A stretch of DNA of 64,000 nt from a virus (Duplodnaviria > Caudoviricetes). The stretch spans positions 39,050-103,049 of IMG/VR virus record IMGVR_UViG_3300037602_000018; one strand, written 5' to 3'. Below are positions 28,174 through 45,347 of the stretch, piece after piece (the stretch's first letter is position 1; every line of letters begins with the position of its first letter). Made by a program: the position numbers and the translations under genes. Under the pieces are notes generated by a model. The model worked only from the letters and a program-made list of their open reading frames with translations, ran no database searches and had not been told where the DNA came from.

Positions 28174-29172
28174 TTAATCTACTAACTCTGCTAGTAACAT
28201 ATATTTAACACCATTGATAGAAACTTCTATCTTAGTGTCATGAGAACCAGTTGCATCTGGAGAAGGTGTACCTAATTCCCAAGCACCTGCTAATTCATTC
28301 AAATTAGTATCTGATGTTTTAATCGTTTTTGCAAAATCTATATCATTAACAGAATTTTCTGCTAAGTTAGTAATAAATTTGGAAACAGAATTATCTGTTT
28401 CACTTAAATCTATATTTGATTTTGAAACTGATAAAGTAATATAATCTCCATTATCTGTAAAAGAAATAGAATCATCTGTTCTTAAAACTCCATCATCTGA
28501 CGTTGTTCCTAAATAATCAGGAACAGAATCTTCATCTACAGCAACTTTCCCTAACTTGTGTAAATTAATGTCAACCCATTTGACTCCGACTGCTTCATTA
28601 CTGTCAGCTTGTAAAAAAGTATAATCTTCTCCAACAGGAAGTCTAGTATCGTTAGAAGAAGTTCTAACGTGTAAATCTCCTTTTGTAGTTAATATACTTG
28701 AATTTGTTGCATTAATAGTATCTTCATCAATTTCAATACCTGAACCAAATTGTACAAACCTATAAATTTCTTGATCTGCATCCCATAGTAATAAACTATC
28801 TTCTTCTACATTAGGAGTACTTAAACCAGTACCACCTTTACTTACAGGTAATATTCCATCTAATTCTGATAAAGACATTTGAGAAGGTTCTACATCTATA
28901 GATATATCATTAGCATTTTCTGTAACAGATACTTTATCTGAAGCAGCTTTAACTTTTCTAAAATTAAATTGTTTTAAATCAGTAATGTTTTTAAATATAG
29001 AAGCACCAGTACCTAAGTTAGAAGCAGTAATTAATAATTCTAAAAAATTAATTTTAAAATTATCATCATTAGTTTCATCAACACCAACTAAATTAATAGT
29101 AGTGTTAATTAAATCACTCTTAATATCGTTAAAAGATTTAGAAGTAAATTCACTAAACTTCTCCTTGGCCAT
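28174..29172 (-). CDS. Putative tail fibre/fibre-associated protein
   Basis: ASNLGTGASIFK...FRK, GILPVSKGGTG, LTTKGDL......RLPVG fibre-type motifs. Confidence 0.65.
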   Translation of the reverse strand: MAKEKFSEFTSKSFNDIKSDLINTTINLVGVDETNDDNFKINFLELLITASNLGTGASIFKNITDLKQFNFRKVKAASDKVSVTENANDISIDVEPSQMSLSELDGILPVSKGGTGLSTPNVEEDSLLLWDADQEIYRFVQFGSGIEIDEDTINATNSSILTTKGDLHVRTSSNDTRLPVGEDYTFLQADSNEAVGVKWVDINLHKLGKVAVDEDSVPDYLGTTSDDGVLRTDDSISFTDNGDYITLSVSKSNIDLSETDNSVSKFITNLAENSVNDIDFAKTIKTSDTNLNELAGAWELGTPSPDATGSHDTKIEVSINGVKYMLLAELVD

Positions 29173-29410
29173 TAGTTTCGTTTTTAGGTTTAGTAATATC
29201 TTTTACAAATCTATTTAATCCTAAAGTTAATATATCTACAAGTTTATCTTGCGCTCTAATTAGTAATATACCTACTACAGGTAATAAACATAATCCTAAT
29301 AGCGGGATTTCATATAAACTAGGAATAAAAAGTAATACTCCAAATAATACTATAAATAGTATACCTATGGTTGTTGTTATAGGATTTTGCTTAAAGTTGC
29401 TCATAACCAT
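29153..29410 (-). CDS. Putative holin (2 TM)
   Basis: 85 aa, two hydrophobic helices, within the lysis cluster. Confidence 0.6.
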   Translation of the reverse strand: MVMSNFKQNPITTTIGILFIVLFGVLLFIPSLYEIPLLGLCLLPVVGILLIRAQDKLVDILTLGLNRFVKDITKPKNETNGQGEV

Positions 29411-29937
29411 TTTAATTTAAATTGAAATTTTAATACGTACCAAATAAAGAATAATAAAACTACTGTTATAATAAATGTAGGTAAAGACCACCACTTAACT
29501 ACAACTTTAGATTGATTTTTATAATGTTCTAATTCTTTTACTAACTCTTTATTTCTTAAATCATAAGCTCTGATTTCCTGAGTCTTTTCAGATAGTTTAC
29601 TTTGATATTCTTTAACAGACTCTTCACATTCATTATTAAATTGAATAGTTTTACCATCAGAAACTATACTGGAATTACCTGCTTGTACTTTAAATTTTCT
29701 AAGTTTTTTAGAAATAGTATCACAAGGATTTTCTATTTGTATATTTTGATTTTGTGGTAGAGTTTTAACTATAAAAACACTATCTACTTTTCTTTCTATA
29801 TTAGATAATGAATCTATCTTAGTTCTTAATTCAATATTTTCTTCTTTGTAATCAGAAGTTTCAACTAGTTTTTTCTTACTATTACAACTAACAAATATAG
29901 TTAATAAAAGTATTATTACCAAATTATTTTTTATCAT
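29401..29937 (-). CDS. Putative unimolecular spanin
   Basis: Lipobox (LLTIFVS-C) plus C-terminal TM helix (LPTFIITVVLLFFIWYVL); adjacent to the endolysin. Confidence 0.7.
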   Translation of the reverse strand: MIKNNLVIILLLTIFVSCNSKKKLVETSDYKEENIELRTKIDSLSNIERKVDSVFIVKTLPQNQNIQIENPCDTISKKLRKFKVQAGNSSIVSDGKTIQFNNECEESVKEYQSKLSEKTQEIRAYDLRNKELVKELEHYKNQSKVVVKWWSLPTFIITVVLLFFIWYVLKFQFKLKWL

Positions 29938-30581
29938 TTTAATATTTCATTTAATTTTTCTTTAACAGTACCTTCAATTTCTGTTTTTATATAAGAAAGT
30001 TCTACGTCAGTAAATTTTTCATCTTGGTGTGTAGCTATACTACTGAACACTAAAACATCATTATCTGCATCTATAGCTTTTCTAAATAAATGTCTTATTT
30101 TAGAATGTTTAACTCCTTCTTGAATATAAAAATTTTTTAAAAGAGAATTTTCCATTGTGTCAGTTTCTAATAATATAGTTTTACTAGGACTTAATTCTGC
30201 TTTTTTTAACATTATCTTATAAGAAGTATCTACATTGATATTTCTATATCTTTGTCCTGCTTCAATAGTTTCATCTTTATTTTTAAACCTTTCAAAGATA
30301 ACAGTAACTCTATTAAAAGATTCTTTACCATTTACAGCTATTAATACTAAAAATCTATCGGCTTTAGTATTAATAAAAATACGAGAAACTGATTTATGTA
30401 TTTCACGAATACTATCTAAACTTATAAGTTTATCAAATATATTTAATTTAATTTCAATTTCCTTATTTTCTTTTTCAAGATTATTATTTTTTACTTTTAA
30501 TTTTTTAATTTCTCTCATATGTGCTAAATAACCTAATACTAAAGTTACTAAAGCAGGGATAGCAATTGTCAAAAATTCCAT
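29934..30581 (-). CDS. Putative holin/antiholin: N-terminal TM, coiled coil, possible GAF-like domain
   Basis: Single N-terminal TM followed by a soluble domain (ADRFLVLIAVNG); sits between endolysin and spanin. Confidence 0.5.
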   Translation of the reverse strand: MEFLTIAIPALVTLVLGYLAHMREIKKLKVKNNNLEKENKEIEIKLNIFDKLISLDSIREIHKSVSRIFINTKADRFLVLIAVNGKESFNRVTVIFERFKNKDETIEAGQRYRNINVDTSYKIMLKKAELSPSKTILLETDTMENSLLKNFYIQEGVKHSKIRHLFRKAIDADNDVLVFSSIATHQDEKFTDVELSYIKTEIEGTVKEKLNEILK

Positions 30582-31085
30582 TTATAAGTTGTCGTTTAGT
30601 AGTTTTAAAACTCTATTTCTCCATCCATTAATATATTTTATTAATGCAGGTTTAGCTAATATTATATCAATATATTTATTTAATCTAAAAAGTAAAAATC
30701 TTTCTTCTGAAATAAGTTTAGATGCTTTTATTGTATTTGGCCCTACTATTCCATCAGTTAAAGTACCTATAGCTTGTTGTAGAATTCTAATCCCTCCTCT
30801 TAAACCATGGTTAATAACTGAATCAAAAACACTTACTTGTAAATGTTTAGGTAATTTATCAATTCCAGCTTCTACCCAAAAATCTAAATAATAAATATCT
30901 TGAGCTTGTTTCAAAGTTAAATTTTTTATATCTAAATAAGGGTAACTATGAGCAGCAATTCCATATTTAGTGCCTTTTAATTCACCTTTACCAATTATAC
31001 CAGTAGTCCAGTTTCCCCTATCATCTGGGTCATTTGTATAACCACCTTCGTGACCTATTATTTCTTTAAAAGCTTTATTAAACAT
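30582..31085 (-). CDS. Endolysin, glycoside hydrolase family 108
   Basis: HEGGYTNDPDDRG, GTKYGI, FDSVINHG, DGIVGPNT, GWRNRV. Confidence 0.92.
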   Translation of the reverse strand: MFNKAFKEIIGHEGGYTNDPDDRGNWTTGIIGKGELKGTKYGIAAHSYPYLDIKNLTLKQAQDIYYLDFWVEAGIDKLPKHLQVSVFDSVINHGLRGGIRILQQAIGTLTDGIVGPNTIKASKLISEERFLLFRLNKYIDIILAKPALIKYINGWRNRVLKLLNDNL

Positions 31086-31126: not shown

Positions 31127-33919
31127 TTATTCTAAAATTACTGGTCTTGAATCCCAATCAGAAGTCCATTGCACTTGCTTAGTACCCCCTTCTGAATTGG
31201 TATATGTTTGTGTCCATGTTTCACCCACTACCGTTGTATTGGTTAGCGTGTAATCTTTTAGTTCGTTATAAAACTCCGTAACTAATTCACCCGAAGGTTT
31301 GAGTAATAAATTACCCAATGCAACTGAGGCATCTACCCTCCAAGCTATACCTGATGATGAATAAGTAGCAGCATTTACCCATTGGCTTAAATAAGTGTCT
31401 GAGAAATTGTTATCTCTAATATGGTAAAGATATATAGTTTTAGCATACTGCGCTCCTGTCAACAAATAGCGTAGATTATAGTTAGCTTGTCTAGCTAGTA
31501 ATAATGAATCAAACATTGGCCATACTATAGAATCATGGATATACTCAGCACTATCACCACTACCATCAATGTGATAAGAGAATATAGAGTCTGTTTCTTC
31601 GCTTATATAAACTCGGTTCAAATTCCAAGGTGCTAAGGCTGCGTCTGCCCCTGTTTCAGTATTAACAACAGGTATACCTAAACTGGCTCCTAAAGCCGCC
31701 ATTTCTTCTATTGATTCCAACCATTCAGTACCTTCGGGGGGTATAGAGTAAGCGTTAGGGTCATGTTGAAACCCTGACCGATTATTGCAATAAGAGTTGA
31801 AGCATATCATGTCAGCAGGGAATAAACTATCTGACCGATTGTGGTAAAACCAGTCGCGCATCATCTTGACATATCCAGGATTGTTAAAAGCCAAAGCGGG
31901 GCCAGCTACTATCATTTCAGGAGCCACATCTTTGATACCGTTACCATATTGTCCTTCATGCCCATCATATACCATACTTAGTGCTGCCGCTGCCGCGTGT
32001 GGTGTAAGATTGTGGTATGTTGTCCACCATGTTTTATCCCATTCATTCCAAGGTGAGAAGATTACAACAGTATCTAACCTGTTAGGCTGTTCAACAATCC
32101 ATTCGGCCATTCTAACATAAATTGCACGCATAGTATCCCATGTAGCTGGGTTGGTCTGTAACTCTTTATTTTGTCGGGTTGTAAGAGTGGTGTCCCAATA
32201 CATATAAGGTTCTTCTCCTATGGGGGTATGTGTAGGGTAAGTAGATGTAAATTGATTTAGATTCTTTATAGGCGAAATCATAAGCTTGCCCCCTCTTGCC
32301 TGAAACTTTTGTATTTGGTCTATCTCTAAAGCTCCAACCGCTCCAAATTTATTAAGGCTATTATCGGTATTAATAGTCTTATTCATTTCTACGTAGGTAC
32401 GACTGCCCGCAAAAGGGTTAATGTCAAATATGTTTCTGAATACTGAATCTACAGATTCTCTATGGTCATAATCATGAGTATTGATACTCCAAGCTTGTTT
32501 TACGGGTACGTTTGGTAGTTCAGGATGAAACTCTTCTACTGTATCTATACGCACACCAAAAGCTTGAATTTCATTAATACCTGTTATAATAGCACTCCGA
32601 TTAAGTATAATGTATCGAATAGTATCATCTATGGTCACCGTTTTAGTTCCTAGATAGGTGTCTAAATTAACTCTTGTAATACTATCTAACTCAAACATAT
32701 TTTTCTTACCTATCCATATATCTACAGTAGGGCTTCCTGTACCATCTTTAATTTTTAAAGCCTCTACATAGCACTTTCCATGAAGGTCTATAATTAAAGT
32801 ATGCCCTGTAAGACCTGTGCCGTCAATTAATTCATAACTCATGGATATAAAACCACCACTAAACACATCGTTGGTATTGGTTATCCCATCAAATAAAAAT
32901 TTGGATTGTACAGGTACAGTGGGAGCATTGGACAGTACCATTTTATGAGAAAGCCTAAGTTGCCCCTCAGTTAATACAGGGGGTGGTGGGTCTATTGGGT
33001 CAGGAGAATCGTTACCTTCTTTAGGCTCTAAATTCTGTATATCTTCTACAGCAGTCTTCCATATTTCATAAAACTTTTCTTGCTTAGAGTCTGATATATA
33101 ACTACCATAAAAAGCTCCCAAGAAATCATGACTACATGGCCCACCAGCAGAACCATTTAAATTTGCTGCTAAAATGTAATGTTCTATACGACTTAAACCT
33201 GTTATTACAGCAGTACTTGAGTGAATTTCCTCACCATTTAAAAATATCTTTCTTGTAGTACCTTTTCTTGTAAATACTATAAAATTGTTAGAACTAGCTG
33301 GAAAAGAAGAGAATACAGCACTGGTAGCATCACTGAATCTAGCAGTTCCACTGGCTCTAAATACCAAATCAATATCAGGATTAGGTGTACTTTCCCTTGA
33401 ACCCATAGCCCAATCACCATCTATAGTAGAACCTTGTATTTGAATATAGGCACCAAATGAAAATGAATCTGCTTTAAAATGACTGGCGTTACTATCAGGT
33501 ATAAAATGAGTACGTAAATAAGCTCCTGAAGCATTAGGTCTAAAACCTAATTGAGGACTATATTCTACATCACCTACTATAGTACTATGTCCAATATTAC
33601 TAGCATAATTTCTTAAACCAAAATCTTCACTAGTGTTATTTGTAAATTTATACAACCTGTCAAATTCTAAATTCAACGAATCTAATCTTCTTACAAAATC
33701 ACTATTAATTAAATTTTCATCGTTTTCAGGAGTCTCTAATCCATCTGAAATAGCAGAGTCTAATACAGCTATATATTTAACATGATATAAATCACTTAAT
33801 CGAACTGTGTCTAATATTCGATTTGATTTCTCAGCATTAGCTAAATTTATAGGAATTATTGTTTGAGCTTGTATATTAAATACAATAAATAATAAGAAAA
33901 CTATATATCTTTTCATCAA
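31127..33919 (-). CDS. Secreted multidomain protein: LamG/ConA-like + beta-sandwich + clan GH-A glycoside hydrolase
   Basis: Signal peptide ...FNIQA/Q; RKIFLNGE; Pro linker (PDPIDPPPP); WNEWD acid/base and NTETGAD nucleophile motifs, AGPALA. Confidence 0.7.
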   Translation of the reverse strand: MMKRYIVFLLFIVFNIQAQTIIPINLANAEKSNRILDTVRLSDLYHVKYIAVLDSAISDGLETPENDENLINSDFVRRLDSLNLEFDRLYKFTNNTSEDFGLRNYASNIGHSTIVGDVEYSPQLGFRPNASGAYLRTHFIPDSNASHFKADSFSFGAYIQIQGSTIDGDWAMGSRESTPNPDIDLVFRASGTARFSDATSAVFSSFPASSNNFIVFTRKGTTRKIFLNGEEIHSSTAVITGLSRIEHYILAANLNGSAGGPCSHDFLGAFYGSYISDSKQEKFYEIWKTAVEDIQNLEPKEGNDSPDPIDPPPPVLTEGQLRLSHKMVLSNAPTVPVQSKFLFDGITNTNDVFSGGFISMSYELIDGTGLTGHTLIIDLHGKCYVEALKIKDGTGSPTVDIWIGKKNMFELDSITRVNLDTYLGTKTVTIDDTIRYIILNRSAIITGINEIQAFGVRIDTVEEFHPELPNVPVKQAWSINTHDYDHRESVDSVFRNIFDINPFAGSRTYVEMNKTINTDNSLNKFGAVGALEIDQIQKFQARGGKLMISPIKNLNQFTSTYPTHTPIGEEPYMYWDTTLTTRQNKELQTNPATWDTMRAIYVRMAEWIVEQPNRLDTVVIFSPWNEWDKTWWTTYHNLTPHAAAAALSMVYDGHEGQYGNGIKDVAPEMIVAGPALAFNNPGYVKMMRDWFYHNRSDSLFPADMICFNSYCNNRSGFQHDPNAYSIPPEGTEWLESIEEMAALGASLGIPVVNTETGADAALAPWNLNRVYISEETDSIFSYHIDGSGDSAEYIHDSIVWPMFDSLLLARQANYNLRYLLTGAQYAKTIYLYHIRDNNFSDTYLSQWVNAATYSSSGIAWRVDASVALGNLLLKPSGELVTEFYNELKDYTLTNTTVVGETWTQTYTNSEGGTKQVQWTSDWDSRPVILE

Positions 33920-33927
33920 TATTAGAT

Positions 33928-34806
33928 TTACGGAAGCATCGCTTCTATATCCGTTCTATTTGTTGTTTGATTAGAAGGGTAGACAATTACAAGTTTTATA
34001 GTACCTATCCAAAAAGAAGTACCTGAATGTCCACTACCCATTGTAACTCTACCTAATTGACCTGAACCTACATTCTTTGAGCCATAATCATTATTGTTTA
34101 TCCATAAGTTACTAGTAGTTGTATTAAATACAGCAAACCATACAGATTGTATTTGGAAAGGACTAACTGTCATGTAATCATTAATAGAACCTGCAAATAA
34201 ACGAGCATTAGCATCGCCATTTATACCCATTGCTTGTCTATGAGTAGCACTACCGTCTGTAATATAATGAGCATTCCCATCAGCAGCACTATCTCTGGTA
34301 GCTATAGCTATTCTTGTAGTAGGTTGTGCAATAGGCCCAAAAGTAGATGTTTGTAAATAATCATTACCATCAAATTTTAATACAGGTAAACTATCACTTC
34401 CTTTTACGAGTATACCACTTTCTACAATTTTTGGTTGATTAGCGTCTATGGTTTGAGTAGCATGTCTACCATTACCGCTCCAATCGTATAACCATGAAGC
34501 AAAACCATCGCCCCCACCAACAAATGTTTTAATAGATGAAGTATCTACCATTCCGTCTATTATGCCAAAGCTTTGACTAGAGTTGTCTAGGTTTCTTCTA
34601 ACAACAATTATACTGTCGTTATAGTTCTTATCTAACTGTATTAATGAAAATGCAGCAGAAGCTCCAGGATAATCATTCAATAACAAATTTGGAATATTAT
34701 CTGAACTAAATGAAGAAAATTGTACAGTATTAGCATTTGGACTTCTAAGTTGCCCAAATGCTTGTGTTATACATGATATTAATATTATTAATAAAATATT
34801 TTTCAT
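33928..34806 (-). CDS. Secreted LamG/ConA-like beta-sandwich protein
   Basis: Signal peptide ...TQAFG/Q; A.AAFSL..L, VRR..DN, W.YDWSGNGRHATQ...NQP, KFDGND. Confidence 0.7.
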   Translation of the reverse strand: MKNILLIILISCITQAFGQLRSPNANTVQFSSFSSDNIPNLLLNDYPGASAAFSLIQLDKNYNDSIIVVRRNLDNSSQSFGIIDGMVDTSSIKTFVGGGDGFASWLYDWSGNGRHATQTIDANQPKIVESGILVKGSDSLPVLKFDGNDYLQTSTFGPIAQPTTRIAIATRDSAADGNAHYITDGSATHRQAMGINGDANARLFAGSINDYMTVSPFQIQSVWFAVFNTTTSNLWINNNDYGSKNVGSGQLGRVTMGSGHSGTSFWIGTIKLVIVYPSNQTTNRTDIEAMLP

Positions 34807-36881
34807 TAATCAGCAGGTGTTAAAGCAAAATCTTCAAATCCATTATATATTTTACGTAAACCAGCTCCACTATATCTAGTACTAATGCTTGCACTGCCAT
34901 TAACAATACCGTTAATTCTAGTACTATTAATACATTGTATTTTAATAGGATTAGTTCCTGATATAAATAAATCTGCTACAGTAGTATAAGCAGGTACAGT
35001 TAATCCAGTATCTAAATAAATTGTTATTGTATCTGTATTAGCAGTACTATAAGTCCAGTTAGTTCTATTAAACCATTCATCAGTAATTGTATCATTTGCT
35101 GAGATTTCGTATTCACCATATGAAAAAGCAGTATTAATACTATCTATTCTAAGATTAGTAATACTATCATGATAACTAACAACGCTATCTATTTTAGAAT
35201 CAACTTCAGATTTAGTATAATAGTTATTTAAAGTACTATTATTTACTTTGTTATCTAAACTATCTTGTAAATTTACAACAGTACTAATAGCTTGTGTACC
35301 AGTATGATTACTCCTATTTAAATAATAAGCACCTGTTTGTCCATTTAAAGTACTCGCATTACTACTAGAACCACCTTCTATGCTCACAGCATTAGCCACA
35401 TAAAAAGTATCATTTACATACATTACAGAGGCAGTTGCTAATACAGTATCTGTATTTACTGAAACACCTCCAACTTTAATGTTAGAAGTTCCTTTTTGAA
35501 ATAAAAATAAACCTTCATCGCCATTATTCCAAAAGTTAGTTACGCTACCATTAGGTATAGATAAACTATTAAATGTGACTACAATAGTATCATTTGATAA
35601 ATTTTGAATATTACAAGTAGTATCAGATGTTGAAAAAGTAAAATCAGCCGTAACTTTTTTGTAACATGATTTAAAAGATGAGACAGAAGACCCTCCTCCG
35701 ACATTAATACTGTCTGCAAGGGTATCAAGTTTAGCTTGTACCCATTTAGCAGGAGGTATGGTATATGGAGTTACAGTAAAATTATTATTATAAGTACCAG
35801 GGTGATATTTAAACCCTTCATAAGAATTAAATGATGCGTGTCCTGTTTTATTTGAAAGAAGGTCTGAACTCCTAGTATTAACTGAAAAATACAAACTATC
35901 ACCATATGTTTGAAATTTTGAAAGATATGTACTTAAAGTACTAAGACCTGTTCTTTGTGAGCTATGTATGGCGCTATTTGGAGAATTTACTCTAAACGAC
36001 CTTAATCCAGTTAAGGCGATACTGCTATCTGTTAATGAAAAATCATAAGCCCTTTCAATATTAAAATACCTCTGGTGCTTTTCAAATGCTTCAGTTAATG
36101 TTAAACTGTCAATTTCATAATCAGATTTAAAATTATCCAAACTATCTAAAAACCTTGGTACTGTTACTAATTTAGTAGTATCTACTTCAACTTCATAATC
36201 AAAACCTGATTGACTTACATTAATACCAAAACCTGCTGATACAGTATCTTTTTCATTAGTAGGGTCTGAATCACCATCATCTATAGTAAACGTATCTCCT
36301 GTACCATTTGTAATAGTTCCAGTAATATTATTACCTACTTTATTAAAAGATATGTTTTGTAATTCATTTGTTACAGAAGAATCACCATCGTAAGGATTTG
36401 TAATAAATCCTACATCATTTGTAAATCCACTTAATACTGTAGGTACAACTGGAAATCTTGCTTCTAGAGCATTTAAAGAATCTTCTAACTCTGTTCTACG
36501 TATATACAGATTAGAGGAAAATCCTCCTAAACTATCTGCATTACCTACAGCACCTGAAGATATAGTAGAAATTGTATCTCCTGATATAACTATATTATTA
36601 CCTGCTATTATTCTTTTATTAACTCTTAATTCAATCCAACTACCTGAGTTAAATCTGTAAAAACTACTATCTAAAGGCTGATATACAACAAGCGTACTAT
36701 CTTTAAATTTATCAGGTACATCTGCTGTATCACTATAGTATTTAAAACCTCCTCCTACATTATAACTACGTATAGCAGAAAAATCACCAGTTGGTTCAAT
36801 AGCACCACTAGTACCTATTTTTACTTGAGCTTTTACATTAAAAACAAATAAACAAATTAAAAATATTAATATTTTATTCAT
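34806..36881 (-). CDS. Secreted tail-fibre-like protein
   Basis: Signal peptide ...FNVKA/Q; ADSLGG, VPTVLSGFTNDVGFIT, DGDSSVTNELQ, RSNHTGTQAISTV..LQ..L..K, YYTKSEVD fibre motifs. Confidence 0.7.
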   Translation of the reverse strand: MNKILIFLICLFVFNVKAQVKIGTSGAIEPTGDFSAIRSYNVGGGFKYYSDTADVPDKFKDSTLVVYQPLDSSFYRFNSGSWIELRVNKRIIAGNNIVISGDTISTISSGAVGNADSLGGFSSNLYIRRTELEDSLNALEARFPVVPTVLSGFTNDVGFITNPYDGDSSVTNELQNISFNKVGNNITGTITNGTGDTFTIDDGDSDPTNEKDTVSAGFGINVSQSGFDYEVEVDTTKLVTVPRFLDSLDNFKSDYEIDSLTLTEAFEKHQRYFNIERAYDFSLTDSSIALTGLRSFRVNSPNSAIHSSQRTGLSTLSTYLSKFQTYGDSLYFSVNTRSSDLLSNKTGHASFNSYEGFKYHPGTYNNNFTVTPYTIPPAKWVQAKLDTLADSINVGGGSSVSSFKSCYKKVTADFTFSTSDTTCNIQNLSNDTIVVTFNSLSIPNGSVTNFWNNGDEGLFLFQKGTSNIKVGGVSVNTDTVLATASVMYVNDTFYVANAVSIEGGSSSNASTLNGQTGAYYLNRSNHTGTQAISTVVNLQDSLDNKVNNSTLNNYYTKSEVDSKIDSVVSYHDSITNLRIDSINTAFSYGEYEISANDTITDEWFNRTNWTYSTANTDTITIYLDTGLTVPAYTTVADLFISGTNPIKIQCINSTRINGIVNGSASISTRYSGAGLRKIYNGFEDFALTPAD

Positions 36882-38127
36882 GATATGTTAAATTACTATT
36901 ACCTACTAACATCCAACCAATATACCTAGTTCCATCTGAATTACTCCAATCTGCAAATTTAGAATAAGCATTTCTTATATCTACTTTTTCTAAACACCAT
37001 TTGAAATAAGGTTTATTTATTTCATTTATTTCAAATGCCCAAGGTAAACCATCTCTAGTTTTATAAGTGCCATTGTAATCAGCACTTGTATAAAATCTAC
37101 TAGAATCTACTAAATTAGTCCCAGAATAATAAGGCATGTGCGTTTCACGGCCTCTTTCGTTGGTACGATAAATATAAAACTCTCCGTATAAATTACCTGT
37201 AACATTACTTTTAAAAGTAACTACCTTATTATATTGATGATAATTAGTTGTATTTAAACCGTTTATATTAGTATTATAGTATCTAGGAGATAAATCTCTT
37301 CGTACATCATTTGCTATATTTACACTATTATCAGCATCTGTAACAGATTGAATTATATCACTACCTCCATTTAAAAATCTAAGAGACAAACCACTTGAAG
37401 CACCTGCACCTAAAGCTAATATCTTACAATTTACTAAAGCATCTACGTATTCAAAATTTTTATTTAGTCGATATTCAATTATATTATCAGATACTAAATC
37501 ATTAAAATCTAAATCACCTCTACCAGGCCAAGTATCTTCAAAACACATTAAATTCTTATATACTCGTTTATAAGCTCTTAATGAATCAACAGGATAATCA
37601 TCTAATCTATCAGGCACACCATCACCATCAGTATCTAATTCAATTACTCTTCCTACGCATATATTATCTACATAACCTAAAGAATTCGTATATACGTAAA
37701 GTTGAATAAACTGAGAATTAAATGTATTTGTATATACATTAGTAATAGATACTCCATTATTTTTAGAAGGTGTTGTATATCCTAAAAAAGTACTATCACT
37801 AGAATAATGCATTATAAATAAAGAACCTCCTTCTGTATAATCATAAGCTATTCTATAAATTGCATCTGGATTTACAGGAAATGAATACTTAACTTTTCCT
37901 AAAGTTAATTTACCTTGGCTAATATTAGTATTATTTTCTTTATACCATATATTATTAGGTAATAATTTAGTATATACTTCGTTATTAGTATCTATAATAG
38001 GATTATTAAAATCTTGAGTTGTTATAGAACAACTAGTACTATTCTTCTTAATTTTATCTTTTGTGAATATATCTTTTTCACAAGCTACCGATAAGATAGC
38101 TAACATTAAAATATTTAAATATTTCAT
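36874..38127 (-). CDS. Lipoprotein with LruC/DUF4842-like domain
   Basis: Lipobox LSVA-C; DTDGDGVPDRLDDYP calcium-binding repeat; FEDTWP.RGD.DFNDLV; GLPWA; E..DI..AY.KF.DW. Confidence 0.8.
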   Translation of the reverse strand: MKYLNILMLAILSVACEKDIFTKDKIKKNSTSCSITTQDFNNPIIDTNNEVYTKLLPNNIWYKENNTNISQGKLTLGKVKYSFPVNPDAIYRIAYDYTEGGSLFIMHYSSDSTFLGYTTPSKNNGVSITNVYTNTFNSQFIQLYVYTNSLGYVDNICVGRVIELDTDGDGVPDRLDDYPVDSLRAYKRVYKNLMCFEDTWPGRGDLDFNDLVSDNIIEYRLNKNFEYVDALVNCKILALGAGASSGLSLRFLNGGSDIIQSVTDADNSVNIANDVRRDLSPRYYNTNINGLNTTNYHQYNKVVTFKSNVTGNLYGEFYIYRTNERGRETHMPYYSGTNLVDSSRFYTSADYNGTYKTRDGLPWAFEINEINKPYFKWCLEKVDIRNAYSKFADWSNSDGTRYIGWMLVGNSNLTYHE

Positions 38128-39083
38128 TGAATTTCTATTTGAGCGGACGTGTTAAATTTATTATTAGATACATATAAATAATAGTTAGTAGCTACACCTA
38201 ATGTATTTGTATGACTTACAGTTGTTCTGGTAAAAGCGGATATACTTGGAAAACCATTAATATATATTTCATCTATTTCTCCAAAGCTAACAGGAATTGC
38301 ATAGTAAAAATACTGTGTTCCTGTAGGGTTATTTGTTGCAAAAGATTTAATATAATTAGTAGCTAGTTCACCAGAACCATTATTTATTTCAGTTGGAGTT
38401 AAATTAGTAGAACCTGTTACTCCATATACATTATTATTATCAAAACCCCAATACCTTTTCCATCTCCAATTAACAGTATAATTACTAGATGTTAATAAAT
38501 TAGTAAGTGTATTTGTTGCTTCAGCTCTCCATGAATGTGAAGTAGCAGTATTTTTAGTAATTGAACCTATAGCTATAGATGCAGGGGATACATTTGAAAT
38601 ATTGCTAGTTAAATAAGAACCACTAGTAACATCGTATATATCTAAAGTATTAGTTGATACATTAGACGGATTAGATATAGACCAAGAGAATGTTTTAGAA
38701 CCTGTTAATATAGTACCTACTTCGACTGTTGAAGTTTGGTTCATAGTAAAAGATGTAAAACTAGGCGTAGCATAAGGAGTTAATAATTTTTCTATAATAT
38801 CATCATAACTCCCTGATATGTTATCACCTGCTTGATAACCTCCTAAATTTATTGTAGCAGGACTGTTACCTGAGTAAATACCTGAACCTCCGTTACCCGA
38901 AGGAATTGCCATAGTGTCTACGTAACCATCAGGTCTTACTACTAGCATTAAAGTATCAGAACCTTTTAATTTAGATATTTTAAGTCCGTGTACAAAATCA
39001 GGTATATATTGAAAATTTCTCACAAGTTGTCCTGAAAGATTAAAGCTTATTAAAGCAAATATTATAAATATTAATTTTTTCAT
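38124..39083 (-). CDS. Secreted Thr/Ser-rich phage structural-type protein
   Basis: Signal peptide ...FNLSG/Q; LGG..AG...IEKLL.PY..P and YFYYAIP.SFG...NGF motifs. Confidence 0.65.
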   Translation of the reverse strand: MKKLIFIIFALISFNLSGQLVRNFQYIPDFVHGLKISKLKGSDTLMLVVRPDGYVDTMAIPSGNGGSGIYSGNSPATINLGGYQAGDNISGSYDDIIEKLLTPYATPSFTSFTMNQTSTVEVGTILTGSKTFSWSISNPSNVSTNTLDIYDVTSGSYLTSNISNVSPASIAIGSITKNTATSHSWRAEATNTLTNLLTSSNYTVNWRWKRYWGFDNNNVYGVTGSTNLTPTEINNGSGELATNYIKSFATNNPTGTQYFYYAIPVSFGEIDEIYINGFPSISAFTRTTVSHTNTLGVATNYYLYVSNNKFNTSAQIEIQ

Positions 39084-39469
39084 TATTTAAACATTACAAT
39101 TCGTAAATAGTTTGTACCTAACATTTGATATGGAAACGTAATAGTACCTTGTGATAAATCTACAACAGCTTCTACTGAAGTATATCCTTCTTGACCATTT
39201 AAATAAACAAATACTTTTGAATCAGGATAACCTGCATAATCAGCAGCATCAGTAGTTAATTCATAAACATCAGTATCTGTAATTTCACCTGTTTCTACTA
39301 TAGCTCCTAAAGAACTACTCACTAAATCTATAATACCTGAAAAAGGTATTTTTATATTTTCATTAGAAAATTCATTATGTCCTACCAAATAAAAGAAAGA
39401 ATATTGTGGAGAAGCTATAATTTGAGCTACTGTTTGTAAAGTAAATTCTGAAAATTTTTTCTGTGCCAT
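39083..39469 (-). CDS. Putative fibre adaptor protein
   Basis: MAQKKFSEF N-terminus shared with 28174-29172; VFVYLNGQ...GTITF domain. Confidence 0.55.
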   Translation of the reverse strand: MAQKKFSEFTLQTVAQIIASPQYSFFYLVGHNEFSNENIKIPFSGIIDLVSSSLGAIVETGEITDTDVYELTTDAADYAGYPDSKVFVYLNGQEGYTSVEAVVDLSQGTITFPYQMLGTNYLRIVMFK

Positions 39470-39816
39470 TATTCTGAAATTATATTTTTACCACTTTCTG
39501 TAATTAGACAATAACCTTCTTCTGAAATTATATTGTTTTCATGACAATCTTCTGATACATCTACTATATTACTTATTCCACTAGAAGTAATACAATCTTC
39601 ACATATATCTTGTATTTTATCAATAAGACAATTTATTACTTCTGAATCTAAATTATTTTTAAGTAATAAATATTCAATATCTTGATAAGTATTAATTAAT
39701 TTAGTATTAAAAGAAGTGTTTCCTTTTTTTAATTTATTACATATTCTTTCTCCTGAAACTTTAGGACAAGTTTCAGTATCATTTAGAATATTTTTTATGT
39801 CAGTTATATTATACAT
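39469..39816 (-). CDS. Cys-rich tail hub-like protein
   Basis: Multiple Cys; C-terminal IISEEGYCLITESGKNIISE. Confidence 0.55.
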   Translation of the reverse strand: MYNITDIKNILNDTETCPKVSGERICNKLKKGNTSFNTKLINTYQDIEYLLLKNNLDSEVINCLIDKIQDICEDCITSSGISNIVDVSEDCHENNIISEEGYCLITESGKNIISE

Positions 39817-40400
39817 TAACTACAGCCACATCCGCAATCACCATCACAAATAGCTTTTGCTAGTTTATATTGACATTCAGCATTCTTAAATTCCCCATAT
39901 TTAGCAGAAATATTACCAGAATAAATCAATCCTCTGATTTTATTAGCTAATTCTATTACATCTTCTAATGAACAACCAGTAGTTTTTCCAGTACAAAGTT
40001 TACTTAATTTAGAGCTTATGCAACAATCTAAATCATCATGTACAAGAATTCCTATGAATATATTAGTTACAGCATTAGCATCTAAAAGTTTAAATTCCCA
40101 TACTCCATCACTTAATACATTTAAAGCACTTCCTGTAGTCAAAGTAGATGTATCTATTTGATGTACATACTCAGTACCATTAGTGGTAGTAGTAGCTGTA
40201 AAATCTAAATTATCAGCTCCTGAAGTAGTAGTATAATCAGTACCTCCAACAGTAGCAGTTCCGCCTACTACTAAAGTATATTTTAATACTGAATCCAAAT
40301 AAACTTCCATTACTGGATAATTTGTATTTGTATCAGCATTATCTGACTTAACAAATATTTTTTTAAAATCTGAAGATGTTTCAATTGTTATATTAGCCAT
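39816..40400 (-). CDS. Cys-rich tail hub-like protein
   Basis: DGVW.F, LDCCI, C-terminal CDGDCGCGCS; position in the structural module. Confidence 0.6.
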   Translation of the reverse strand: MANITIETSSDFKKIFVKSDNADTNTNYPVMEVYLDSVLKYTLVVGGTATVGGTDYTTTSGADNLDFTATTTTNGTEYVHQIDTSTLTTGSALNVLSDGVWEFKLLDANAVTNIFIGILVHDDLDCCISSKLSKLCTGKTTGCSLEDVIELANKIRGLIYSGNISAKYGEFKNAECQYKLAKAICDGDCGCGCS

Positions 40401-40667: not shown

Positions 40668-40702
40668 ATGGGATTAGCAGGTTTTTAGCCCACTAATCCC
40701 AT
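40668..40702 (-). terminator. Hairpin terminator after the auxiliary capsid gene
   Basis: ATGGGATTAG/CTAATCCCAT 10-bp stem. Confidence 0.6.
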
Positions 40703-43844: not shown

Positions 43845-45347
43845 TTATAGGAATGCAGGAATTAACGATGCAGTCCTTTGTGGATCTTTAATCATTGCTC
43901 CGAATGTACACATCTTATGCATTTCAAATCCATCTATAGAATTTGCAACACGTTTAACAGCAGCACCAGTAGGAGAATAAGGGTCACGTAGTCCAGGTAC
44001 ATAGGCATTAATATCAGGACTGTTAGATGCCATAACTTTCTGAATGTTAGGTTCATCATTTACAGTACCAATATCAAAAATGTCCATACGATAAGACTCA
44101 GCTACACCTCCAGAGAATACTCCGTTATTAGGAGCCATTTGTTTGTTACGTACTGGATCATCATACATTGGATCTACTTCTACACGAACTACGATTCCAT
44201 TAGGAGCCATAAATTCAGTGTATTGAGTACCAAAGGTACGAGCATTAGAATGTAGTTTAGAACTAACATTTTTCTGGATAGTAGTATCCTGAAGTGCATT
44301 CCAACCACTAGCTTCAGCTTGGATAGCTTTGTGGAACAAGATAGCACCACGCTCACCTGTACGGATTACAAACTTACGCTCATCTGTAGAAAGCTTATTG
44401 ATAGAAAGCTCCAATAGAATGTTAGTAAGGTAGTCAGCAGTAAAGCTATTATAGAAGAAAGTGTTAGCTACTTCCATTTGCTCACGTAGTCCAAATCCAG
44501 CTCTGATAGCATGACCTGAGTGGTGGTCTACGTTAGATACCTGACCTTTACCATTAATAGTTGAACGTCCGTAGAACATAGCTCTGTTCTTCTCTTGCAT
44601 GAACTGATGCTCATATACAAAAGCCTGATATTGCAACCAAGTAGTAAATGATTGTTTAGCACCTGATTCATCAACTATTTCAAAGTTTGCAACAAACTTC
44701 CTATCTACCATGTTTCCAGGACAGATATATTGCTTACGAATGTAAGTAAAGCTGTTACGGAAAGAAATAGGAGAAGTAAAGTTAGTTTCACCACCACGTA
44801 TTGATAAAGTATCAGATACAGGAGAAAATTCTTTACTAAACAATTTACCTGCTACAAGTTCTTCTCCAGGAACACCAGACACTACAGCGTCAGCACCATA
44901 CACCTTTACAACGTAAACATGATTAGCACCTTCACGAAATTCTGATTGTACCTGCATAGGATACTTTTCATTTTGCTCACCAACAATTACGTCAGTAGGA
45001 GCAAACAATCTTTCAGGAAATACAAGTTCAATTTCAGCACCATTAGCTCCAACATTAAAGTCAGATACTGTAATGGTAGCACCTTGATAACGAGCTTCTA
45101 CAAGAGCTATATTGCGTTCAGAAGAACCAATAAGTTTCCATGTAAAATCATCATCAGTTTCAAGAGTTTTAACAGGAATACCTGCTAACATAGTCTCAAG
45201 AGTAGTTCCATAATGCCTTTGCAATAGCTTAGACATAATTTTAGAAGCAAGCTGAGGCTTGGCTTCACCAATAGCTCCAAGGTGGTTTCGAGTAGTAATA
45301 CCCGACCAGCTCTTCGCGTCATGGATTTGTAAATTACTAATTTTCAT
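43845..45347 (-). CDS. Major capsid protein (crAss-like HK97 fold)
   Basis: 500 aa; WSGITT.NHLG, G.GLREQ, TGERGA..FH, PNG..V.V..DPMYDD, AESYR.DI. Confidence 0.92.
   Translation of the reverse strand: MKISNLQIHDAKSWSGITTRNHLGAIGEAKPQLASKIMSKLLQRHYGTTLETMLAGIPVKTLETDDDFTWKLIGSSERNIALVEARYQGATITVSDFNVGANGAEIELVFPERLFAPTDVIVGEQNEKYPMQVQSEFREGANHVYVVKVYGADAVVSGVPGEELVAGKLFSKEFSPVSDTLSIRGGETNFTSPISFRNSFTYIRKQYICPGNMVDRKFVANFEIVDESGAKQSFTTWLQYQAFVYEHQFMQEKNRAMFYGRSTINGKGQVSNVDHHSGHAIRAGFGLREQMEVANTFFYNSFTADYLTNILLELSINKLSTDERKFVIRTGERGAILFHKAIQAEASGWNALQDTTIQKNVSSKLHSNARTFGTQYTEFMAPNGIVVRVEVDPMYDDPVRNKQMAPNNGVFSGGVAESYRMDIFDIGTVNDEPNIQKVMASNSPDINAYVPGLRDPYSPTGAAVKRVANSIDGFEMHKMCTFGAMIKDPQRTASLIPAFL

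Follow-up and report, generated by a model that had tools for sequence, protein, structure and literature searches.

We have examined an unusual cassette of five consecutive late genes (31127-39083, minus strand) in the genome of an uncultured tailed phage, where the position of the tail-fibre genes in related phages is taken by genes whose products all begin with export signals. The window, by which we mean the whole 64,000-nucleotide stretch analysed, spans bases 39050-103049 of one 103,049-bp genome of 28% G+C (IMG/VR record IMGVR_UViG_3300037602_000018), and the cassette lies within it directly upstream of an endolysin gene and other lysis genes. Judged by their sequence features, the proteins of the cassette are very probably exported, and we lean toward the reading that they are the tail fibres and a depolymerase of the virion, which would mature in the periplasm and be attached when lysis merges the two compartments. 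The signals, their conservation in homologues, the enrichment of an O-glycosylation motif, the synteny with characterised phages and the domain types are direct observations, and they are set out below before the reading and its alternatives are weighed.

The major capsid protein (gene at 43845-45347, minus strand) is related to those of Cellulophaga phage phi14:2 (45% identity) and Bacteroides phage crAss001 (42%), and the late operon is crassvirus-like, with genes for terminase, portal, capsid and ring proteins, a protein of muzzle size and giant cargo/RNA-polymerase proteins; on these grounds we assign the phage to the Crassvirales, as an uncultured member. Genome composition and the nearest relative suggest a Flavobacteriia-type host. 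The cassette is made up as follows.

38124..39083, minus strand: 319-residue protein; signal peptide 1-18 (NLSG/Q), a variable segment of ~60 residues and two tandem beta-sandwich domains
36874..38127, minus strand: 417-residue lipoprotein; lipobox (...AILSVA/C16), a thrombospondin-type-3-like calcium-binding stretch (DTDGDGVPD) and an LruC/DUF4842 domain (~194-405)
34806..36881, minus strand: 691-residue fibre-like protein; signal peptide 1-18 (...NVKA/Q), N-terminal QVKIG domain, mosaic middle and a C-terminal domain of ~280 residues
33928..34806, minus strand: 292-residue protein; signal peptide 1-18 (...QAFG/Q) followed by a domain of carbohydrate-binding type, frequent in phage tail proteins
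31127..33919, minus strand: 930-residue glycoside hydrolase, predicted to be exported; signal peptide (...NIQA/Q)

Export signals

An earlier note on this DNA had described five late genes in a row with export signals, four with Gln at +1 and one with a lipobox, situated directly upstream of the lysis genes. All five open reading frames (ORFs), their coordinates and their cleavage contexts (FNLSG/Q, LSVA/C, FNVKA/Q, TQAFG/Q and FNIQA/Q) were confirmed, the fibre motifs quoted for the 691- and 319-residue products are present, and the endolysin gene (30582-31085) does adjoin the cassette. Each of the five N-termini has a K/R-containing n-region, a hydrophobic core of 10-14 residues, and small residues at -1 and -3; the signal calls were made with a rule-based heuristic scan of our own, together with direct reading and conservation in homologues. 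By the heuristic scan, signal-type N-termini are present in 8/131 ORFs of the genome, five within the cassette and three elsewhere, including a spanin-like lipoprotein, and the probability of a five-gene run arising by chance is ~2e-5. The 417-residue product is a lipoprotein and the other four (319, 691, 292 and 930 residues) are of the signal peptidase I (SPase I) type, with Gln at +1 in 4/4, for which the chance probability is ~1e-6 given a proteome Gln content of 3.4%. Gln at +1 is a phylum-specific feature of Bacteroidota SPase I substrates (the Q-rule), and the pyroglutamate formed from it stabilises extracytoplasmic proteins (PMC5837995, PMC10653852).

The signals are retained in diverged homologues. 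Six of seven homologues of the 319-residue protein (33-93% identity) keep the signal peptide, five of these with Gln at +1, and the orthologues of the 292-residue protein in two other viral genomes (L002 and L007) keep the signal and the Gly-Gln site. In the 691-residue family, the stretch conserved in the mature proteins of three other phages (L075, L076 and L077) has the predicted +1 Gln as its very first residue (QVKIG..G.IEP.G); a mis-called start masks the signal in one of the three. These signal features with their adherence to the Q-rule, the conservation of signals in diverged homologues, and the signal-linked enrichment of an O-glycosylation motif are the reasons why we regard Sec export as genuine. 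None of the five proteins has a C-terminal sorting domain of the type IX secretion system (T9SS; PF18962 / TIGR04183), and without one the products should remain in the periplasm. We also note that a 156-residue protein of the early/replication region, encoded ~34 kb upstream of the window start (genome 5028-5498, plus strand), has a signal peptide before Gln (...NTYS/Q) and may be a further exported protein of the phage.

Enrichment of an O-glycosylation motif

The Bacteroidota O-glycosylate exported proteins in the periplasm at D(S/T)(A/I/L/V/M/T) (PMC8550257). The motif D[ST][AILVMT] is enriched 4-5 fold in the two largest products of the cassette, with 21 occurrences against 4.3 in shuffles for the 691-residue protein and 15 against 3.8 for the 930-residue protein (p<1/2000 in each case), and five control motifs (reversed, substituted) are flat. 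The enrichment is not significant in the 319-, 417- and 292-residue proteins. An origin in internal repeats was considered and rejected, as the sites are scattered in varied contexts. Signal-bearing homologues give observed/shuffled counts of 14/5.3, 11/2.2, 16/4.2, 14/3.3, 16/4.8 and 10/3.1, and there is no excess in a signal-less homologue of the hydrolase (L007-654, 2/1.4), in crAss001 gp22-26, in phi14:2 g080-g086, or in the rest of the proteome of this phage.

Synteny with crAss001 and phi14:2

In crAss001, the head fibre gene gp21 is followed by the tail-fibre/depolymerase genes gp22-gp26, the lysis genes gp27/28, a second head fibre gene (gp29) and the endolysin gene gp30, and the first 26 residues of gp22 dock in the gp38/gp39 hub (PMC10172136). 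The order here matches, with a 128-residue fibre-like protein, the five signal-bearing genes, comparable in size to gp22-gp26, a lysis block and a 332-residue fibre-like protein, and BLASTP matches the flanking genes, among them ring, capsid and portal-side genes, to crAss001 gp31, gp33, gp34/35, gp36, gp40 and gp43. The same search gave no significant match between the five cassette proteins and crAss001 gp22-26. At the same site, phi14:2 encodes virion proteins that are verified by tandem mass spectrometry (MS/MS) and have no signals, and we conclude from this and the crAss001 gene order that the cassette replaces the tail-fibre set. In contrast to the cassette, crAss001 gp22-gp26 have neither signal peptides nor motif enrichment and are assembled in the cytoplasm. 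No such signals were found in crAss001, in the first 50 kb of FpV4, or in the fibre locus of phi14:2, and the premise that fibres of the Crassvirales normally lack signal peptides holds for crAss001 and phi14:2.

Signal-bearing cassettes in other phages

Several unrelated uncultured phages (L002, L006, L075, L076 and L077) also have cassettes of signal-bearing, fibre-like proteins just before their lysis genes. The 46-kb genome of L002 contains a trio composed of the fibre C-terminal domain, a 292-like protein and the hydrolase, all with signals. A signal-bearing pair of 319-like and 691-like proteins is present in L075 and L077, and in L076, a siphovirus with a tape-measure gene; L075 has four such genes in a row. 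The L002/L005 genome (IMGVR_UViG_3300037790_000023) is that of a temperate phage, with a tyrosine recombinase, and encodes a glycosyltransferase.

Cultured Cellulophaga phages have cassettes of the same kind. Five consecutive genes of phi10:1 (gp091-gp095, NC_021802) and three consecutive genes of phi18:3 (gp085-gp087, NC_021794), as well as of phi13:2 (NC_021803), each encode a signal peptide with Gln at +1, and 7/8 of the proteins of the phi10:1 and phi18:3 cassettes are labelled in GenBank as virion proteins on the basis of 'experimental MS/MS proteomics'. Like the cassette described here, these lie between tail and lysis genes, encode products of tail-fibre or polysaccharide-degrading types (pectate lyase, tail fiber), and belong to phages of Flavobacteriia hosts. 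They differ in that none of their members is a lipoprotein and the O-glycosylation motif is not enriched, and phi10:1 and phi18:3 are members of other phage families (an Assiduviridae siphovirus and Pachyviridae). The occurrence of similar cassettes without sequence similarity indicates that the trait is a property of the host-phage system and is not tied to a single protein family, and the lack of motif enrichment in the Cellulophaga proteins argues that glycosylation is therefore not a universal reason for export.

Two further genomes, L060 (IMGVR_UViG_3300049214_000138, 61% GC) and L032, have two or three neighbouring genes of the structural block whose products begin with signal peptides, in some cases followed by Gln at +1; the habit may extend beyond low-GC phages of the Flavobacteriia.

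The proteins of the cassette

The 319- and 691-residue proteins are encoded as a pair, in the same order, in four phages of different morphotypes. The AlphaFold2 model of the 319-residue protein (predicted local distance difference test, pLDDT, 76) has two beta-sandwich domains, and Foldseek matches it to tail-fibre and tail proteins of several crAss-like and other phages (E 1e-14 to 1e-8); there is also a signal-less homologue in crass phage cr131_1 (gp79, by tblastn). The 691-residue family has the classical layout of a tail fibre, with a conserved N-terminus and a mosaic middle and distal part, and its C-terminal domain is common to the fibres of two other phages. A word-based homology search with this protein returned one weak match, and phage records gave none, whether searched with the cassette by megablast or with the 691-residue protein by tblastn; its AlphaFold2 model (pLDDT 31) is unusable. 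With a variable N-terminus and conserved C-terminus in one protein, and a conserved N-terminus and variable distal part in the other, the two look like an adaptor and its fibre, and we suggest that these are the roles of the 319- and 691-residue proteins, respectively. A motif common to all of the post-signal segments was sought and rejected, local alignment supporting only the pair of the 319-residue protein and L002-1330 (z 5.8).

The 292-residue protein matches phrog_10356 ('virion structural protein', E 1.6e-11) and, by tblastn, virion or minor tail proteins of cyanophages and actinophages. An alignment-based scan located its domain in 64 viral loci, where it is mostly signal-less and often C-terminal on long tail proteins; single-sequence pattern scans of viral contigs for the 292- and 417-residue proteins found nothing.

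The ORF of the 930-residue protein opens with TTG at 33919, and the next codon is an ATG (33916), which is used in the public protein set (929 residues) and is the probable start. The protein consists of a LamG/ConA-like domain (~47-292), a proline-rich linker, a discoidin-type binding domain and a clan GH-A TIM-barrel (~480-930), in which N625-E626 and E755 are invariant across 25 homologues, corresponding to the Asn-Glu acid/base and the second Glu as nucleophile. Its Atlas model matches clusters of the GH39, GH42 and GH5 types with template modelling scores of 0.63-0.78, and no Pfam glycoside hydrolase family matches at E<=0.01. Sequence searches of the PDB with three of the cassette proteins gave no matches, the single 930-residue sequence included, and a profile of the latter matches only 5jvk, an uncharacterised chain, in the catalytic part. 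The hydrolase has bacterial relatives (e.g. P0028) that carry a T9SS C-terminal domain, whereas the phage copies do not, and we reject the possibility that the 930-residue protein is a T9SS-secreted enzyme because it lacks this sorting domain.

The 417-residue lipoprotein stands apart from the others. Its LruC domain is recognised by PF16130 (E 7e-26, 92 bits, cut-off 22) and TIGR04456 (E 8e-35, 121 bits, cut-off 36), and the lipobox Cys is followed by two acidic residues (C-E-K-D-I). The closest homologues (36-37% identity) are tandem chromosomal bacterial genes, and a 144-kb bacterial contig (L078) of the same metagenome as L002 holds the closest LruC lipoprotein relatives as a tandem pair. 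The LruC lipoprotein was not found in the related cassettes of L002, L006, L075, L076, L077, phi10:1 and phi18:3. It is probably a host-derived addition that stays on the cell envelope, and not a part of the virion.

Organisation of the locus

The features that surround the cassette are listed below.

40668..40702, minus strand: strong terminator-like 14-bp hairpin, upstream of the late block
39469..40400, minus strand: 194- and 115-residue proteins, a tail-hub pair (crAss001 gp38/gp39) by position alone
39083..39469, minus strand: 128-residue signal-less fibre-like protein, at the position of the crAss001 head fibre gp21
30582..31085, minus strand: endolysin without signal peptide, GH108 and PG_binding_3 (Pfam and PHROG matches)
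29934-30581, minus strand: 215-residue membrane protein of the lysis block (ORF; phrog_29276)
29401-29937, minus strand (ORF termini): 178-residue lipoprotein laid out like a unimolecular spanin, with an N-terminal lipobox (FVSC) and a transmembrane helix at the C-terminus
29153-29410, minus strand (ORF termini): 85-residue hydrophobic holin-like protein
28174..29172, minus strand: 332-residue signal-less fibre-like protein, past the lysis genes, at the position of the crAss001 head fibre gp29

From the 115-residue gene (39816) to the 332-residue gene (28174), neighbouring genes overlap or almost touch, and this tight packing, together with the hairpin upstream, suggests one late unit in which the cassette looks co-transcribed with the structural and lysis genes. 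Matches to sigma-70-type promoters did not exceed chance expectation. The gene order within the lysis block is that of phi14:2 g078-g076, and spanin-like lipoproteins also come after the cassettes of L002, L006 and L075.

The 128- and 332-residue proteins are the sole fibre candidates in the genome besides the cassette. Their first 55 residues are common to both (MAxxKFSEFT..., 36% identity, z 10), which suggests that the two dock at one site on the particle. Neither the 194- nor the 115-residue protein has a significant BLASTP match to crAss001 proteins or a PHROG match. The 194-residue protein (39816-40400, minus strand) ends in a cluster of Cys residues (CDGDCGCGCS); the hub and rings of crAss001 are held by disulfides.

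Discussion

The reading that we favour is that the five genes constitute a tail-fibre/depolymerase module rebuilt such that its products leave the cytoplasm. The cassette would be translated late, along with the structural and lysis genes, and four of the proteins would be exported by Sec, cleaved by SPase I before Gln, capped by host cyclisation of this residue to pyroglutamate, and folded in the periplasm, where the general system of the host probably O-glycosylates the 691-residue fibre and the 930-residue hydrolase. Holin, endolysin and spanin would subsequently merge the compartments, and the exported parts would then meet finished, fibre-less particles and dock to them. We infer the cleavage, the glycosylation, the periplasmic retention, the docking at lysis and the pairing of adaptor with fibre. 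The proposal of the earlier note that fibre or adhesin parts are routed through Sec is upheld as regards export, by the signals, their conservation and the motif, and the further step of joining the virion has the support of the crAss001 synteny and of the Cellulophaga analogues identified by MS/MS. We tentatively extend the proposal to many phages of the Bacteroidota, which, like this one, may assemble their virions from two compartments, with fibres that are Sec-exported, pyroglutamate-capped, O-glycosylated by the host and added at lysis.

Several considerations weigh against a place in the virion. We know of no tailed phage that adds Sec-exported parts to its particle, and the 128- and 332-residue fibre-like proteins, which have no signals, could be the only virion fibres. 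A lipoprotein sits uneasily in an operon for virion fibres, the post-signal segment of the 319-residue family is hypervariable across homologues, and local alignment found no significant match of the post-signal region to the docking peptide of crAss001 gp22. The Cellulophaga cassettes are without sequence similarity to the five proteins, such that the support they give is by analogy, and MS/MS of virions can also detect co-purifying proteins. Their signal-bearing virion proteins contain fewer O-glycosylation motifs than expected from composition (8 observed vs ~22), which is the opposite of the fibres of the uncultured phages, and signal and motif are only marginally linked across the hydrolase family (ratio 1.85 vs 1.03, p 0.05). 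The five proteins are known here from their genes, and their assignment to the virion draws on synteny, domain types and the Cellulophaga analogy.

The strongest alternative, although we consider it unlikely, is that the proteins are exported and never enter the virion, and act instead as free or cell-bound enzymes or binders that serve in stripping or masking the surface polysaccharide of debris and neighbouring cells, receptor destruction, superinfection exclusion, or escape. They could be released at lysis as proteins stabilised by pyroglutamate and glycans, or could act in the periplasm on receptor or capsule precursors, with the 332- and 128-residue proteins serving as the virion's own fibres. 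Export itself is well supported, the cassette always adjoins lysis genes, signal-less fibre-like proteins are at hand in the genome, and the N-terminus that follows the signal in the 319-residue family is not conserved, all of which this alternative accommodates. There is also precedent in Llp of T5 and in Cor, exported receptor-blocking proteins encoded beside receptor-binding genes, and Porphyromonas gingivalis phages and prophages encode Q-rule proteins of unknown role (PMC10367356). However, the cassette stands in place of the crAss001 and phi14:2 tail-fibre genes and not alongside them, and the conserved N-terminus and mosaic distal part of the 691-residue family are typical of virion fibres. 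Seven analogous signal-bearing proteins were found in purified Cellulophaga virions, and without a T9SS domain the proteins have no route to the cell surface before lysis.

The earlier note had offered as a second possibility that the cassette products form a structure on the surface of the infected cell, with the LruC-like lipoprotein as its anchor. Translational coupling of the genes would fit this, and the acidic residues after the Cys (C-E-K-D) loosely resemble the surface-export signals of Bacteroidota lipoproteins (acidic residues at +2 to +5), without matching a published consensus that was checked, but no related cassette that was examined contains the lipoprotein, which is closest to genes of bacterial chromosomes, and the other four proteins have no signal for translocation across the outer membrane; we therefore regard this structure as highly improbable. 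It is just as hard to sustain the view that the proteins are cytoplasmic virion components whose hydrophobic N-termini stay uncleaved and act as membrane anchors or handles for assembly, even if the rule-based nature of the signal calls leaves some room for it, given the Gln at +1 in 4/4 and in most homologues, the small residues at -1 and -3, mature-protein conservation that starts exactly at +1, and a periplasm-specific glycosylation motif that is enriched only in the signal-bearing versions.

In the textbook view, tailed phages are built wholly in the cytoplasm. If the cassette does encode virion fibres that pass through the periplasm, then the end product in the cytoplasm would be a fibre-less particle, and host range would depend on the secretion, glutaminyl cyclase and glycosylation genes of the host. 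The fibres could carry host glycans, with a bearing on stability, protease resistance and recognition, and annotation pipelines that count a signal peptide against a structural role would mislabel such genes. The question can be addressed now, as Cellulophaga baltica, phi10:1 and phi18:3 are in culture and virion MS/MS data exist.

Comparison with known systems

The phage proteins known to be exported by Sec include signal-peptide and signal-arrest-release endolysins, spanin lipoproteins, and the T5 Llp and Cor lipoproteins, the last two encoded beside receptor-binding genes. These lysis and exclusion proteins are small and non-virion, and include no fibre, adhesin or polysaccharide hydrolase of 300-900 residues, although proteins of the Llp/Cor type are a plausible model for the 417-residue LruC lipoprotein. 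Our literature searches yielded no description of signal peptides on the fibres of tailed phages and no comment on the signals of the Cellulophaga phages, and one survey took the lack of signals to be characteristic of phage proteins (PMC6199706). The Q-rule proteins of the P. gingivalis phages are not described as genes of a fibre module, whereas here the whole tail-fibre position is composed of such substrates. What this phage adds is the syntenic replacement of the crAss001 fibre set, the presence of a lipoprotein member, and the strong enrichment of the O-glycosylation motif.

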